The notes beneath the pieces were generated by a model. The model saw only the letters and a program-made list of their open reading frames with translations, ran no database searches and had not been told where the DNA came from. Positions 1,083-24,678 of a stretch of DNA of 64,000 nt are shown one piece after another. Positions within the stretch are counted from its first letter, which is position 1. Each line of letters starts with the position of its first letter. A program made the position numbers and the translations under genes. This stretch comes from Escherichia coli. GTDB lineage: Bacteria > Pseudomonadota > Gammaproteobacteria > Enterobacterales > Enterobacteriaceae. Where the stretch lies: NCBI RefSeq assembly GCF_003334335.1, contig NZ_QOWQ01000008.1; one strand, written 5' to 3'.

Positions 1083-2681
1083 ATGCGTAAAACAGTGGCT
1101 TTTGGCTTTGTCGGTACCGTACTGGATTATGCCGGGCGCGGCAGTCAGCGCTGGTCAAAATGGCGTCCGACACTCTGTTTATGCCAGCAAGAATCGTTGG
1201 TCATCGATCGACTGGAATTGTTGCACGACGCCCGCTCGCGCTCGCTATTTGAAACGCTTAAACGCGATATCGCCAGCGTTTCGCCAGAAACAGAAGTGGT
1301 GAGCGTTGAGATTGAACTGCATAACCCGTGGGATTTCGAAGAGGTCTACGCCTGCCTGCATGATTTCGCCCGTGGTTACGAGTTTCAGCCAGAAAAAGAA
1401 GACTATTTAATTCACATCACCACCGGTACCCACGTCGCGCAGATTTGCTGGTTTCTGCTGGCAGAAGCGCGTTACCTGCCCGCCCGGCTGATACAATCTT
1501 CACCTCCGCGCAAAAAAGAACAGCCGCGCGGCCCAGGTGAAGTAACGATTATCGATCTCGATTTAAGCCGTTATAACGCCATCGCCAGCCGCTTTGCCGA
1601 GGAACGCCAGCAAACGCTTGATTTTCTTAAGTCCGGCATTGCCACGCGTAACCCCCACTTCAACCGCATGATTGAGCAGATCGAAAAAGTGGCGATCAAA
1701 TCCCGCGCGCCGATTCTGCTTAACGGTCCAACCGGCGCGGGCAAGTCATTTCTGGCGCGACGCATCTTCGAGTTAAAACAGGCGCGGCATCAGTTTAGCG
1801 GCGCGTTTGTGGAAGTGAACTGCGCCACCCTGCGCGGCGATACCGCCATGTCGACGCTGTTTGGTCATGTAAAAGGCGCGTTTACCGGGGCGCGGGAATC
1901 TCGTGAAGGTTTATTACGCAGCGCCAACGGCGGAATGTTGTTTCTTGATGAGATTGGCGAACTGGGCGCAGACGAACAGGCAATGCTGCTGAAAGCCATT
2001 GAAGAGAAAACCTTTTACCCGTTTGGCAGCGATCGCCAGGTGAGCAGTGATTTTCAGCTTATCGCCGGAACGGTGCGCGATTTGCGCCAGCTGGTTGCCG
2101 AAGGCAAATTTCGCGAAGATCTGTACGCGCGGATCAATCTCTGGACCTTCACCCTGCCGGGTCTACGCCAGCGCCAGGAAGATATTGAACCGAACCTGGA
2201 TTATGAAGTGGAGCGCCACGCCTCACTCACTGGCGACAGCGTGCGTTTTAACACCGAAGCGCGGCGCGCCTGGTTGGCTTTTGCGACCTCTCCCCAGGCA
2301 ACATGGCGCGGTAACTTTCGCGAACTTTCTGCCAGCGTCACGCGGATGGCCACCTTTGCCACTAGCGGACGCATCACTCTGGACGTGGTTGAAGATGAGA
2401 TAAACCGTCTGCGCTATAACTGGCAGGAGAGCCGCCCCTCCGCGCTTACGGCGTTGCTGGGCGCAGAGGCAGAAAACATCGATCTCTTCGACCGTATGCA
2501 ACTGGAACACGTTATCGCTATCTGCCGCCAGGCAAAGTCGCTTTCCGCAGCCGGACGCCAGCTTTTTGACGTTTCGCGCCAGGGCAAAGCCAGCGTCAAT
2601 GACGCGGATCGGCTACGCAAATACCTGGCGCGTTTTGGTCTGACGTGGGAAGCCGTGCAGGATCAGCACAGCTCCAGTTGA
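1083..2681 (+). CDS. rtcR: sigma54-dependent transcriptional activator RtcR
   Basis: ORF track 532 aa; Walker [12 protein letters not shown] and sigma54-contact GAFTGA motif visible; divergent from rtcB. Confidence 0.95.
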
Positions 2682-3421
2682 ATATGGTGGTCCGTCAGCA
2701 CCTGCATCACGCTTACTGGCGGCGGGGCGTCGGTGTAGACGGCATCTACCATGCTGATGCTGCCCATATTGACCATCGCGTTACGGCCAAATTTCGAGTG
2801 ATCGACAACCAGCATAACGTGGCGCGAGTTCTCAATAATGGCGCGTTTGGTGCGAACTTCGTGGTAATCGAACTCCAGCAGCGAGCCGTCGCTATCGATG
2901 CCGCTTATCCCCAGAATGCCGAAATCAAGGCGGAACTGGGAGATAAAATCGAGCGTCGCTTCGCCAATGATCCCGCCATCGCGGCTGCGTAATTCGCCAC
3001 CGGCGAGAATGATGCGAAAATCTTCTTTTACCATCAACGTGTTAGCAACGTTGAGATTGTTGGTGACAATGCGCAAATTGCTGTGATTGAGCAGTGCGTG
3101 CGCTACCGCTTCCGGCGTGGTGCCGATATCGATAAACAGCGTCGAGCCATTGGGGATTTGCTCCGCCACTTTGCGGGCGATGCGCTCTTTTTCTTCGGTC
3201 TGGGTGGCCTTGCGATCGTGCCACGGCGTGTTAACCGAACTGGAAGGCAGCGCCGCACCGCCATGATGGCGCAGGATCAGGTTTTGCTCCGCCAGCTCAT
3301 TGAGGTCGCGGCGAATAGTCTGCGGGCTGACGGAGAAATGCTCTACCAGCTCTTCGGTACTGACATAACCCTGCTGTTTAACCAGTTCGATAATACCGTT
3401 GTGACGTTGTGTTTGTTTCAT
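2663..3421 (-). CDS. glpR: glycerol-3-phosphate regulon repressor GlpR (DeoR family)
   Basis: ORF track 252 aa; N-terminal HTH; 3' end overlaps rtcR 3' end by 19 bp (convergent). Confidence 0.95.
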   Translation of the reverse strand: MKQTQRHNGIIELVKQQGYVSTEELVEHFSVSPQTIRRDLNELAEQNLILRHHGGAALPSSSVNTPWHDRKATQTEEKERIARKVAEQIPNGSTLFIDIGTTPEAVAHALLNHSNLRIVTNNLNVANTLMVKEDFRIILAGGELRSRDGGIIGEATLDFISQFRLDFGILGISGIDSDGSLLEFDYHEVRTKRAIIENSRHVMLVVDHSKFGRNAMVNMGSISMVDAVYTDAPPPVSVMQVLTDHHIQLELC

Positions 3422-6396: not shown

Positions 6397-6500
6397 TGCC
6401 TGATGCGCTACGCTTATCAGGCCTACGTGGTTTATGCAATATATTGAATTTGCATGGTCTTGTAGGCCAGATAAGACGTTCACGTCGCATCCGGCATGAA
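6397..6500. repeat. REP/BIME cluster (repetitive extragenic palindromes)
   Basis: Inverted copies of GCCTGATGCGCTACGCTTATCAGGCCTAC and GTAGGCCAGATAAGACGTTCACGTCGCATCCGGCA downstream of glpD. Confidence 0.8.
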
Positions 6501-6539
6501 CAAAGCGCACTTTGTCAAAAATCTAACCTACTTTTTAAT

Positions 6540-6949: not shown

Positions 6950-9415
<2,466 letters not shown>

Positions 9416-10849
9416 CTATTTCAAGCGATAGTAAAGCTCACGGTACGACTTCGCCGCGACCTGCCAGCTAAAATCCATTGCCATAGCCTGACGTTGCACA
9501 AACCGCCACAGTGAAGGACGGGACCACAGTACAAAAGCACGTCGAATAGCCCGTAACAGCGACCAGGCATTACTATCTTCAAAGACAAACCCACTGGCGA
9601 CGCCATCTGCAAGGTTCTCAAGAGAACAGTCAGAAACCGTATCAGCAAGCCCACCGGTGCGCCGCACTAACGGCAGCGTACCGTACTTCAATCCATAAAG
9701 TTGCGTTAAGCCGCACGGTTCAAAACGGCTGGGCACCAGAATGACGTCCGCGCCGCCCATAATGCGATGCGAAAATGCTTCGTGATAGCCAATCTGAACG
9801 CCCACCTGACCGGGGTATTCCGCTGCCGCCGCAAGGAAACCTTCCTGCAGCACCGGATCGCCCGCGCCGAGTAGCGCCAGCTGCCCGCCCTGCTCCAGAA
9901 GACCCGGTAAGGCTTCCAGCACCAGGTCGAGACCTTTCTGGCTGGTCAGACGGCTCACCACTGCAAAAAGCGGCACTTTATCGTCAACCTTAAGCCCCAT
10001 TGCGATTTGTAACTGGCGCTTATTTTCCGCTTTATCTTCCAACGTATCGCGGGTGTAACGCGAGGCCAACAGTAAGTCCGTCTCTGGACTCCAGATTTTC
10101 TCGTCCACGCCGTTCAGTACGCCGGAAAGACGCCCTTCACGGTGACGCTGTTGCAACAGACCTTCCATACCGTAGGCAAACTGCGGTTCGGTGATCTCGC
10201 GAGCGTAGGTTGGACTGACCGCCGTAATGTGATCGGCATAGTACAGACCGGCCTTCAGGAAAGAGATTTGTCCGTTGAATTCCAGCCCATGAATATTAAA
10301 GAATGACCATGGCAATTGGATGTCATTCATGTGATGTGCATAAAACATGCCTTGATAGGCCAGGTTGTGCACAGTAAACACCGACTTCGCCGGACGCCCG
10401 CGCGCCGCCAGATACGCAGGCGCAAGGCCTGCATGCCAGTCGTGCGCATGCACCACATCAGGACGCCAGAATGGGTCAAGCCCGCTGGCCATTTCTGCCC
10501 CAACCCACCCCAGCAGCGCAAAACGCAATACGTTGTCGGTATAGGCAAATAAGTTGGTATCGTGATACGGGCTTCCCGGACGATCATAGAGATGCGGCGC
10601 GTCAATCAGGTAAATGCCAACCCCGTTGTAATGACCGAACAACAGCGTGATATGTCCGGCGAAGGTATCACGACGGGATACTACCTGCGCATCGGTCACG
10701 CCACGGCGAATATCGGGAAATGCAGGCAACAGTACGCGAGCGTCAACGCCGTCTGCGATTTGTGCTGCGGGTAATGCCCCAATAACATCAGCCAGACCGC
10801 CGGTTTTAAGCAGCGGGAACATCTCTGAACATACATGTAAAACCTGCAT
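9416..10849 (-). CDS. glgA: glycogen synthase GlgA
   Basis: ORF track 477 aa; KTGGLADV motif; start overlaps glgC stop (TAATG). Confidence 0.96.
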
Positions 10850-12144
10850 TATCGCTCCTGTTTATGCCCTAACTTCCGTAGCATTTCGCGCGTTACCAGC
10901 ACGATGCCTTCTTCTGAACGATAGAAACGACGTGCATCTTCCTCTGCGTTTTCACCAATCACCATGCCTTCCGGAATAACACAAGCACGATCGATGACGC
11001 AGCGGCGCAGACGGCACGAGCGACCTACCCATACTTCCGGTAACAATACGGCGGAATCAATGTTGCAGAATGAATTCACGCGAACGCGCGAGAACAGAAC
11101 GGACTGCACCACCACCGAACCGGAGATCACACAACCGCCGGAAACCAGTGAGTTAAGGGTCATCCCGTGGCTACCGGAGCGATCCTGCACGAATTTCGCT
11201 GGCGGTAATGATTCATTGTAGGTGCGAATTGGCCAATTGCGATCGTACATATCCAGTTCCGGCACCACAGAGGCCAGATCGAGGTTCGCTTTCCAGTAAG
11301 CTTCCAGCGTACCCACATCGCGCCAGTACGGCTCGGCATCCGGGTCGGATTGTACGCAAGAGAGCGGGAACGGGTGCGCATAGGCCAGACCGGCTTCGGT
11401 GATCTTGGGAATCAAATCTTTGCCAAAGTCGTGGCTGGAGTTCTCATCGCGATCGTCTTCTTCCAGCAGTTCATACAGATAGTCGGCGTCAAAGACGTAG
11501 ATACCCATACTCGCCAGAGATTTGCTCGGATCGTTCGGCATTGACGGCGGGTTAGCAGGTTTTTCAACGAATTCGATAATTTTATCGTTCTCATCAACCG
11601 CCATAACGCCAAATGCGGAGGCTTCTTCAATCGGTACTGGCATACAAGCAACGGTGCAACGTGCGCCTTTTTCGACGTGATCGATAAGCATACGCGAGTA
11701 GTCTTGCTTGTAGATATGGTCGCCCGCCAGGATCACCACGTATTCCGCTTTATAACGGCGGATAATGTCGAGGTTTTGGGTGACCGCATCTGCGGTGCCG
11801 CGATACCAGTTTTCCCCTTTCATTCTCTGCTGTGCTGGCAGCAGATCGACAAACTCGTTCATTTCTTCATTGAAGAATGACCAGCCGCGCTGAATGTGCT
11901 GCACCAGAGTGTGGGACTGGTACTGGGTGATCACGCCCATACGACGGATCCCGGAGTTGATGCAGTTAGACAGCGCAAAGTCGATAATGCGGAACTTACC
12001 GCCGAAGTGTACGGCCGGTTTTGCTCGCTTATTGGTTAAATCCTTCAGGCGGGTACCACGTCCTCCCGCCAGTATCAGGGCAACAGATTTCAATGGCAGC
12101 TGGCGCGCCAACATTAAGTGATCGTTCTTCTCTAAACTAACCAT
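10849..12144 (-). CDS. glgC: glucose-1-phosphate adenylyltransferase GlgC
   Basis: ORF track 10849..12180 trimmed to ATG at 12144 giving 431 aa ([12 protein letters not shown]...); [11 protein letters not shown] motif. Confidence 0.92.
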
Positions 12145-22583: not shown

Positions 22584-23621
22584 TTACTTAGCGAGAGTTA
22601 CTGTGGAGGGAGAGGCTTGCTCAAATCCGCGTTCAAGGATTTCCAGATTGGTAAGAACTTCAGATTCCTTGACGTAATTTGGCGCACCGTGGGTGATGGT
22701 TTGATACAACGCATCATAAACGCGCCCGTAATCGCCCATCTCCGGCTTCATCTCTTCTCTGACCGTCACGCCCTCGTCATTGACATACTCCAGCACACCG
22801 ACCGAATCATCCGCTGCGAATCCCGGTTCGCCCGGCATAATATTAGCCTTCAGGCTGGTTTCCTGCTGGTCGATACCGTATTTAATAAACGAACCTTTCT
22901 TACCGTGAACGATAAATTTCGGATAATCGATTTTCACCAGATGGCTGGTTTTGACGATGGCTTTCAGGTCGCCATAAAACAGTTGCGCTTCAAAGGTGTC
23001 GTCAGGATTGGCTTTATTACGCAGGCTGCGGATGTCATAAGCGACGTGATCCGGGCGACCGAACAGAGAAATAATCTGGTCCATCGTATGCACACCAAGG
23101 CCATAAAACGCGCCATCCTGCGGCAGCCCAGGTTTGGTTTCTGCCACCGGGCGGTAATAGTCAAAATGGCTTTCCACTTCAACAATCTCTCCCAACTTGC
23201 CACTTTCAATCGCTTTTTTCGCTGTCAGGAAGCAGGAGTCAAAGCGACGATTCTGATACGGCGTGACGGTCAGCCCTTTGCTTTTCGCCAACGCAAACAG
23301 CTCTTTCGCCTGCGCAAGTGTCGGAGTGAACGGTTTTTCGACCAGCACATTTTTCCCGGCTTCCAGCGCGCGTTTCGCGTACTCGAAATGGCTGTCCGCG
23401 TGGGTGCAGACAACAACCAGCTTAACATCGGGATCGTTTAGTACTTCGTCGAGATCGCTGGTGAAATGGATATGGGAATAAATGGGAGCCTGTTCTTCCG
23501 GCTTCGCATGGCGACGAAAAATATGCGCGACATGCCAGCTATCCTTGCGGTTAAGTACATACGGCAGATGGTAACGGGTGGTGCTTTTGCCGAAGCCAAT
23601 AAAGGCGCAGTTGATGACCAT
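22584..23621 (-). CDS. yhhX: Gfo/Idh/MocA-family NAD(P)-dependent oxidoreductase YhhX
   Basis: ORF track 345 aa; N-terminal Rossmann CAFIGFGKS. Confidence 0.9.
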   Translation of the reverse strand: MVINCAFIGFGKSTTRYHLPYVLNRKDSWHVAHIFRRHAKPEEQAPIYSHIHFTSDLDEVLNDPDVKLVVVCTHADSHFEYAKRALEAGKNVLVEKPFTPTLAQAKELFALAKSKGLTVTPYQNRRFDSCFLTAKKAIESGKLGEIVEVESHFDYYRPVAETKPGLPQDGAFYGLGVHTMDQIISLFGRPDHVAYDIRSLRNKANPDDTFEAQLFYGDLKAIVKTSHLVKIDYPKFIVHGKKGSFIKYGIDQQETSLKANIMPGEPGFAADDSVGVLEYVNDEGVTVREEMKPEMGDYGRVYDALYQTITHGAPNYVKESEVLTNLEILERGFEQASPSTVTLAK

Positions 23622-23737
23622 GATTTCGTCCTTTTTAAGGTGGTTATTTACACCTTAGCGCAAAGCGGACGTGGTTCCTACTGGAGTGCGCATAACGAAC
23701 ACAAGCACTCCCGTGGATAAATTGAGAACGAAAGATC

Positions 23738-23832
23738 AAAAAAAAAGCCAGCACCCGGCTGGCTAAGTAATACTGGAAGCAATGTGAGCAATGTCGTGCT
23801 TTCAGGTTCTCCGCGAGGGTCTTCCTGATCGC
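23738..23832 (-). ncRNA. ryhB: Fur-repressed iron-sparing small RNA RyhB
   Basis: Minus strand reads GCGATCAGGAAGACCCTCGCGGAGAACCTGAAAGCACGACATTGCTCACATTGCTTCCAGTATTACTTAGCCAGCCGGGTGCTGGC followed by T9 (intrinsic terminator); matches the RyhB sequence from memory; lies in the yhhX-yhhY spacer. Confidence 0.92.
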
Positions 23833-23835
23833 GAG

Positions 23836-23858
23836 ACAATAATAATCATTCTCATTCG
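23836..23858 (-). promoter_or_regulatory. Fur box overlapping the ryhB promoter
   Basis: Minus strand GAATGAGAATGATTATTATTGTC resembles GATAATGATAATCATTATC immediately upstream of the RyhB 5' end. Confidence 0.65.
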
Positions 23859-23953
23859 CACTTGTCCAACACTTTTTGCAAAAAAATGCATTTGACTCGC
23901 ATTTGAAAGTCAATGATGTTGAAAGGGACATTTACCCCAAAGAGGACAAAGGA

Positions 23954-24442
23954 ATGAGTGAGATAGTAATACGCCACGCAGAAACACGGGATTACGAGGC
24001 CATCAGGCAGATTCACGCCCAGCCGGAGGTGTATTGCAACACACTACAGGTGCCTCATCCTTCCGATCATATGTGGCAGGAGCGACTCGCCGATCGTCCC
24101 GGCATCAAGCAACTCGTCGCCTGTATTGATGGAGACGTCGTGGGCCATCTCACCATTGACGTGCAACAGCGCCCACGCCGCAGTCATGTTGCCGATTTTG
24201 GTATCTGTGTCGACTCTCGTTGGAAGAACCGCGGCGTCGCCAGCGCCCTGATGCGAGAGATGATTGAAATGTGCGACAACTGGTTGCGGGTAGATCGCAT
24301 TGAACTAACCGTGTTTGTCGATAACGCCCCGGCAATTAAGGTCTATAAAAAATACGGCTTTGAAATTGAAGGGACTGGTAAGAAGTACGCATTGCGTAAT
24401 GGTGAATATGTCGATGCATATTATATGGCGCGGGTGAAGTAA
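23954..24442 (+). CDS. yhhY: GNAT-family N-acetyltransferase YhhY
   Basis: ORF track 23876..24442 (TTG) trimmed to ATG at 23954 giving 162 aa (MSEIVIRHAETRDYEAI...); the longer track ORF would overrun the ryhB promoter. Confidence 0.85.
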   Translation: MSEIVIRHAETRDYEAIRQIHAQPEVYCNTLQVPHPSDHMWQERLADRPGIKQLVACIDGDVVGHLTIDVQQRPRRSHVADFGICVDSRWKNRGVASALMREMIEMCDNWLRVDRIELTVFVDNAPAIKVYKKYGFEIEGTGKKYALRNGEYVDAYYMARVK

Positions 24443-24678
24443 GATAGTGCCCTTTTTCTGAGATGGAAAAAGGGTGTCATTCAAAATCGACATACCTTCC
24501 TTTAAGGTATTTATTTGCCCAATACATATATTGAGATTTAACTCATAATTACTTCCTAAAGTGTAATATTTTATTTTTTAATATATACGCCTACAATTTC
24601 CTGGAGTAAATAAATAACAATTAACAAGCATAATATTGCCATTGATAAAATAGCATGCCATAAAAGGACTTTTCAGGG

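Follow-up and report, generated by a model that had tools for sequence, protein, structure and literature searches.

The ryhB small RNA locus between yhhX and yhhY in an Escherichia coli chromosome close to K-12

What is encoded between yhhX and yhhY in the stretch of E. coli DNA analyzed here (64 kb in length, hereafter the window)? A mechanical list of open reading frames fills this region with a 95-aa ORF on the minus strand and with a TTG-initiated, elongated version of yhhY. A preliminary description made from the letters considered both to be artefacts and saw instead, on the minus strand, a 95-nt region matching the small RNA RyhB, with a terminator hairpin, a U-tract and a Fur-box-like sequence at its promoter; a covariance-model scan was named there as a way to check this. 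Our analysis leaves very little doubt that the locus is ryhB, the gene of a Fur-repressed, Hfq-dependent sRNA of the E. coli iron-sparing response.

The minus-strand sequence 23832..23738, GCGATCAGGAAGACCCTCGCGGAGAACCTGAAAGCACGACATTGCTCACATTGCTTCCAGTATTACTTAGCCAGCCGGGTGCTGGCTTTTTTTTT, is identical in 95/95 nt to the ncRNA ryhB of MG1655 (b4451; NC_000913.3 3580922..3581016), entered in the MG1655 record as 'small regulatory RNA RyhB' between yhhX and yhhY, and the identity extends over the entire yhhX–yhhY intergenic region (332/332 bp). The same placement between yhhX and yhhY has been described for ryhB before (PMC2189734). When the 64 kb were searched with the complete set of 4227 Rfam families, gathering thresholds applied, RF00057 (RyhB) alone reached its threshold, with a minus-strand match at 23739..23803 that covered the complete model (1–67/67) at 83.1 bits (gathering score 55; E 3.6e-14). 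Both the base-for-base comparison and the covariance model thus bear out the assignment made in the preliminary description, and the scan revealed no second RyhB copy in the 64 kb. As the Rfam model is restricted to the 3' 65 nt and leaves the 5' 28 nt of RyhB outside, the 5' stem-loop was identified by its identity with K-12 and not by the model. Transcription starts at 23832 (GCGAUCAGG...), and the 3' end lies inside the U-run 23746..23738; the length of 95 nt comes from the annotation of MG1655, in which the entire T-run is included, while mature RyhB is usually quoted as about 90 nt. All elements described at the time are present where they had been placed; the -35 hexamer (23868..23863) is located just outside the range first assigned to the locus, 23738–23858. 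The features of the locus are compiled in Table 1. To judge from this identity, the locus is the type gene of RyhB itself in a K-12-like strain, beyond mere membership in the family. It is as such an already known and ordinary gene that adds nothing new biologically, RyhB being among the best-characterized sRNAs of bacteria, and refutation of the assignment is very unlikely, since every base agrees with the K-12 locus, for which the experiments had a positive outcome.

Table 1. Coordinates of the features at the ryhB locus, in positions of the window.
Feature	Coordinates	Strand	Basis or remark
ryhB sRNA gene	23738..23832	-	95/95 nt vs MG1655 b4451; Rfam RF00057
-35 hexamer TGGACA	23863..23868	-	promoter scan
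-10 hexamer TATTAT	23839..23844	-	promoter scan; 6 nt 5' of annotated start
Fur box GAGAATGATTATTATTGTC (minus strand)	23835..23853	.	16/19 to Fur consensus GATAATGATAATCATTATC
5' stem-loop, RyhB nt 1–20	23813..23832	-	minimum-free-energy fold
Target-pairing core, RyhB nt 38–60	23773..23795	-	22-nt core in at least 120 loci
A/U-rich spacer UAUUACUU, nt 61–68	23765..23772	-	unpaired in fold
Rho-independent terminator	23738..23764	-	7-bp stem, 5 G-C pairs, 5-nt loop, nine U
yhhX, oxidoreductase	22584..23621	-	co-oriented downstream neighbor, 116 nt after ryhB U-run
yhhY, N-acetyltransferase, 162 aa	23954..24442	+	divergent neighbor; NF007527
95-aa mechanical ORF, regarded as not a gene	23644..23931	-	spans ryhB promoter, RNA and terminator
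TTG-initiated 188-aa version of yhhY	23876..24442	+	mechanical ORF list

The wider surroundings are those of a common E. coli genome. The window aligns to MG1655 3557186..3621962 with about 99.97% identity, the differences being 16 substitutions, two 1-bp indels and the absence of IS1E from yrhA, and over 25 kb many natural isolates show the same sequence without a change; by this measure, its source is an ordinary E. coli chromosome close to K-12. Intact yrhA (164 aa, 25854..26348, with the junction near 26235..26243) is split by IS1E in MG1655, and the K-12 alignment blocks overlap by 9 bp at this junction, consistent with an IS1 target-site duplication. Likewise, glpR is present as an intact 252-aa ORF (2663..3421, minus strand) with an extra G at 3271, whereas MG1655 is one G short at that site and has its glpR annotated as a pseudogene. 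Right after yhhY begins an AT-rich block (24500..27000; GC 0.30–0.35 versus about 0.50–0.55 in the flanks) with the genes yhhZ (392 aa), yrhA, yrhD and yrhB, suggestive of an orphan Hcp-toxin/immunity islet gained by horizontal transfer; yhhZ itself is named 'Hcp1 family type VI secretion system effector' by PGAP versus 'putative endonuclease' in MG1655. Three intergenic repeats of ~110–120 bp (6397..6503, 34598..34714 and 40422..40542; about 84% mutual identity) are each built as an inverted REP pair (GCCGGATGCGGCG…), i.e., as a BIME; an identity as ERIC/IRU elements was considered and discarded, the ERIC core being unmatched. The end of the window, 61230..64000, lies within rhsB (MG1655 3619192 onwards), with the Rhs element cut by the window edge.

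A promoter scan of 23400..24200 returned a single promoter-like site, a sigma-70-like TGGACA-18-TATTAT arrangement with 10/12 matches, and an equivalent of the -35 hexamer (TTTACA, TAGACA or TGGACA) is visible upstream in most orthologues. The Fur-box-like sequence noticed beforehand turned out to be a 16/19 box that covers the -10 hexamer and extends to -3 from the start, a position that is the geometry of a repressor occluding RNA polymerase. With up to three mismatches allowed, the Fur consensus GATAATGATAATCATTATC occurs once in the 64 kb, where shuffled sequences let one expect 0.03 matches. The element is also conserved in homologues: when the 200 nt upstream of the RyhB core were surveyed against equally long control windows taken from these loci, a box matching in at least 15/19 positions was found upstream in 82% of the 116 distinct loci listed versus 0% of 498 control windows, and the mean best match was 15.4 for the homologous promoters versus 10.6 for the controls. 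For K-12, a Fur site of 25.2 bits has been described at the ryhB promoter, gel shift experiments confirmed binding, and Fur was found to repress ryhB (PMC2189734).

The 5' stem-loop of the RNA varies between genera, with indels among the orthologues. Downstream of it, the conserved core sequence …GCACGACAUUGCUCACAUUGCUUCCAGU… is present at 23773..23803; the core lies in a weakly paired central region of the folded RNA and is largely unpaired in the centroid fold. A search for exact matches to the 22-nt core ACATTGCTCACATTGCTTCCAG in one genome per species yielded at least 120 loci in other Gammaproteobacteria (Enterobacterales, Vibrionaceae, Aeromonas and some MAGs), with a spread over three orders and often two loci per genome among the matches listed; the invariance of the core in the MAFFT alignment follows by construction from this exact-core retrieval, and documents the spread of the core rather than the strength of constraint acting on it. 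The adjoining spacer is U/A-rich in 91/91 aligned homologues among the loci listed, its length shifting in 1-nt steps, and is presumed to serve as an internal Hfq contact, on the basis of the Hfq-binding module described in PMC4509938. That module also includes the RyhB terminator, for which a dG of -10.7 and a 9-U tail were given (PMC4509938). Our terminator scan located the stem-loop AGCCAGC-CGGGT-GCTGGCT at 23764..23746, followed by nine T ending at 23738, in agreement with the hairpin and U-tract announced in the preliminary description. A GC-rich hairpin with a T-run directly behind it is kept in 90/91 distinct 3' halves of the loci listed, and its stem comes in 32 versions (for example AGCCAGC/GCUGGCU, GCCCGC/GCGGGC, AGCCGGC/GCCGGCU, GCCCAC/GUGGGC and GGCCAGC/GCUGGCC), from which we infer that it has been maintained through changes in both of its arms. 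Since MAFFT places the GCCCGC-type stems one column off those of the AGCCAGC type, such that column-wise pair counts would under-count compensatory changes, each 3' tail was folded separately and the stems were tabulated. The minimum free energy of RyhB as a whole (-24.1 kcal/mol) is no better than that of shuffled sequences (z = -0.67) and was excluded from the evidence in either direction; short sRNAs whose seed is long and unpaired usually give such weak z-scores.

Of 13 homologous loci rescanned with Rfam, 11 reached the RyhB gathering score (66.6–90.7 bits; two of these are second copies in one genome), the exceptions being a degenerate copy and one Vibrio locus whose terminator is distant from its core. 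The degenerate copy (L037:5671-5738) belongs to the soil MAG CTSoil_132, which harbors three RyhB-core loci (L036, L037, L038). It is mutated beside the core (TACAACATTGC), its terminator hairpin is broken (-1.9 kcal/mol), its Fur box is weak and its score stays below the Rfam threshold; it may be a paralogue in decay. The same locus carries an FnrS gene at 9300..9416. The sRNA gene is duplicated in tandem in Salinivibrio sharmensis (L039), where two RyhB cores (11701-11722 and 12007-12028) on the same strand are separated by 306 nt and are each preceded by a Fur box.

The function of the core was approached via sodB. When the K-12 sodB sequence was searched for the longest perfect complement of RyhB, nt 38–46 (GACAUUGCU) proved perfectly complementary to sodB positions -4..+5 (AGCAAUGUC), across the start codon, a complement length of 9 nt that was reached by 17/1000 RyhB shuffles. 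An RNAduplex calculation with full-length RyhB and sodB -60..+40 had produced an implausible 86-nt duplex that was no better than those of shuffles (55/500); RNAduplex disregards intramolecular structure and was replaced by the complement search above.

Taken together, these elements outline the following mode of action. With plentiful iron, Fe2+-Fur would occupy the 19-bp box over the -10 hexamer and block ryhB transcription; with scarce iron, Fur would depart and sigma-70 RNA polymerase would initiate at 23832. The intrinsic terminator would then end the transcript, giving rise to an RNA of ~90 nt with a 3' U-tail, to which Hfq would bind via the module formed by the terminator, the U-tail and the A/U-rich spacer. 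The single-stranded core (nt ~38–60) would finally base-pair with the sites of translation initiation in mRNAs that encode non-essential iron proteins, sodB among them, thereby blocking ribosome binding with coupled mRNA decay, i.e., iron sparing. The repression, derepression and Hfq steps are supported by the sequence analyzed here in combination with experiments on the identical K-12 sequence. Massé and Gottesman, as cited in PMC2189734, reportedly described in 2002, for this same K-12 sequence, a transcript of ~90 nt that appears when iron is limiting or fur is deleted and that is stabilized by Hfq. An Hfq-stabilized, iron- and fur-responsive RyhB transcript of ~90 nt in K-12 is also reported on in PMC4509938, together with its Hfq dependence and the behavior of its terminator, and Fur binding and repression are covered by PMC2189734, in all cases with the identical K-12 sequence. 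Iron-responsive expression of ryhB would accordingly be anticipated in the present strain as well.

Does this regulation reach beyond the sRNA? The gene yhhY is divergent from the sRNA in about 30 of the loci listed, down to 48–57% protein identity of YhhY, which is the level found in Yersinia, Serratia, Pantoea, Erwinia and Rahnella. This deep conservation of the yhhY–ryhB pair, along with the position of the Fur site about 100–120 bp upstream of the yhhY start, makes iron/Fur control of yhhY conceivable. The other neighbor, yhhX, adjoins ryhB in about 18 of the loci listed, all from genera close to E. coli (Citrobacter and Enterobacter among them), and the complete yhhX–ryhB–yhhY arrangement is likewise found in E. 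albertii, Citrobacter, Enterobacter and others. For yhhX, the ryhB transcript might double as an iron-regulated leader, with read-through of the ryhB terminator placing yhhX under Fur control. Such a role would be in line with the maintained ryhB–yhhX order in these related loci, with the about 20% of polymerases that pass the ryhB terminator on a plasmid during normal growth (PMC4509938) and with an early in vivo Fur-titration screen that, as cited in PMC2189734, gave the Fur site to yhhX. A promoter-like site specific to yhhX did not emerge from 23400..24200 in our simple promoter scan, which is too insensitive to exclude one. However, iron depletion, under which ryhB is transcribed, makes termination more efficient (PMC4509938), yhhX is unlinked to ryhB beyond the genera closest to E. 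coli among the loci listed, and a second, weak terminator-like hairpin (23715..23700) lies past the ryhB terminator, ahead of the yhhX start. We thus rate the leader function of the ryhB transcript for yhhX as improbable. The said hairpin (23700..23715, minus strand) consists of 6 pairs, 3 of them G-C, has a poor T-tail and showed no sequence-level conservation as far as examined; it might trap read-through transcripts. The broader proposal that the shared control region subjects yhhY to iron/Fur control, and/or that read-through does so for yhhX, is held to be equally doubtful. If it applied to either gene, the locus would be more than a solitary sRNA gene, namely a small module that responds to iron.

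Far less can be said in favor of a protein-coding function of the locus itself. If the 95-aa ORF were truly coding, the RNA features within it would be incidental. It is uninterrupted and ATG-initiated in the window, and tblastn detects partial similarity to it in many loci, but this similarity is limited to residues ~19–65, which are the translated Fur box plus RyhB, and is split into pieces in many genera. The start of the ORF (-137) is already gone in E. albertii, and where the frame was tracked through the core in 27 syntenic loci, starts and stops fell at unrelated positions; moreover, 1-nt indels occur in the spacer and terminator loop between close relatives. The ORF has no NCBIfam family match, the RefSeq records sampled are without an annotated feature at its position, and its translation would have to cross the Rho-independent terminator. 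A coding function thus has next to no probability. By all these comparisons the ORF is an artefact, as originally claimed, and its coding reading is effectively refuted. About as remote is the idea that yhhY truly starts at TTG 23876, with a coding sequence of 188 aa overlapping the ryhB promoter: in both E. coli and E. albertii, the 36 codons preceding ATG 23954 are indeed free of stops in the yhhY frame, but about two thirds of 29 orthologous loci have an in-frame stop 1–19 codons upstream of the conserved ATG, this ATG and an MSEIVIRHAE-type N-terminus are common to 29/29 of them, with a GAGGA/AGGAG Shine-Dalgarno sequence 5–9 nt upstream, the 162-aa YhhY fits the equivalog NF007527 end to end (373 bits, profile 1–162/162), the 26-aa extension of the long version matches nothing in the NCBIfam scan, and the RefSeq and MG1655 annotations both give the 162-aa form. 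On these grounds, ATG 23954 is to be regarded as the true yhhY start and the TTG-initiated version, in keeping with the preliminary description, as the second artefact of the ORF list.

A 601-bp query spanning the locus matched 5425/5426 complete E. coli genomes, and ryhB plus its promoter (133 nt) was at least 99% identical in 5414/5425 of them, always on the chromosome and with a single copy as the median. One of the 5426 genomes gave no match to the ryhB locus, and a few have matches in up to 3 places. In NZ_CP195448.1, identity over ryhB plus promoter is 93.7%, and the region measures 142 bp in place of 133 bp, suggestive of a small insertion. In a survey of 23738..23870 (RefSeq records H1 and H23–H30), none of the 8 PGAP-annotated RefSeq rows sampled across the 5,425 matching genomes had a feature over ryhB, and the RefSeq record of strain E2865, listed in full, is devoid of an ncRNA row at this site, whereas the curated MG1655 record has it. 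A track made of ORFs only mislabels the locus with two spurious reading frames. Because ryhB is missed by ORF callers and in the PGAP records sampled, a covariance-model pass is needed to annotate genes of this kind, and the locus may serve as a clean positive control for the recognition of sRNAs from raw sequence.

How does the locus compare with known systems? With RyhB (SraI) of E. coli K-12 (b4451, RF00057) it shares the same 95/95 nt, promoter, Fur box, terminator and flanking genes yhhX and yhhY. No difference is seen at the locus, although the host strain is not MG1655 (no IS1E in yrhA, intact glpR). Many Enterobacterales have two RyhB genes (locus pairs such as L004/L005, L015/L016, L033/L034, L043/L044 and L012/L013). 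The copy in the window is the yhhY-linked orthologue, and yhhY-linked copies carry the AGCCAGC-type terminator. The second copies, known as RyhB2/IsrE in Salmonella, share with the window copy the 22-nt core, a GC-rich terminator ending in a U-tail and an upstream Fur box, which in their case takes the form GATAAAGATTATCTTTCTC, and two of them (L005 and L016, about 68 bits) reach the RF00057 gathering score; they differ in their 5' part (…TATTCGGTACGACATTGC…), in a GCCCGC-type terminator stem and in a site away from yhhY. Vibrio RyhB (L003, L006, L014 and others) has the identical core and an upstream Fur box as well, but is a much longer RNA with the terminator far from the core; L003, the only Vibrio locus rescanned, scored below the Rfam gathering threshold. 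Finally, PrrF1/PrrF2 of Pseudomonas, HrrF, BrrF and FsrA follow the same logic, being Fur-repressed sRNAs that lower the levels of mRNAs for iron-containing proteins; to our knowledge, they have no sequence homology to RyhB and are functional analogues rather than members of the family to which the present locus belongs.
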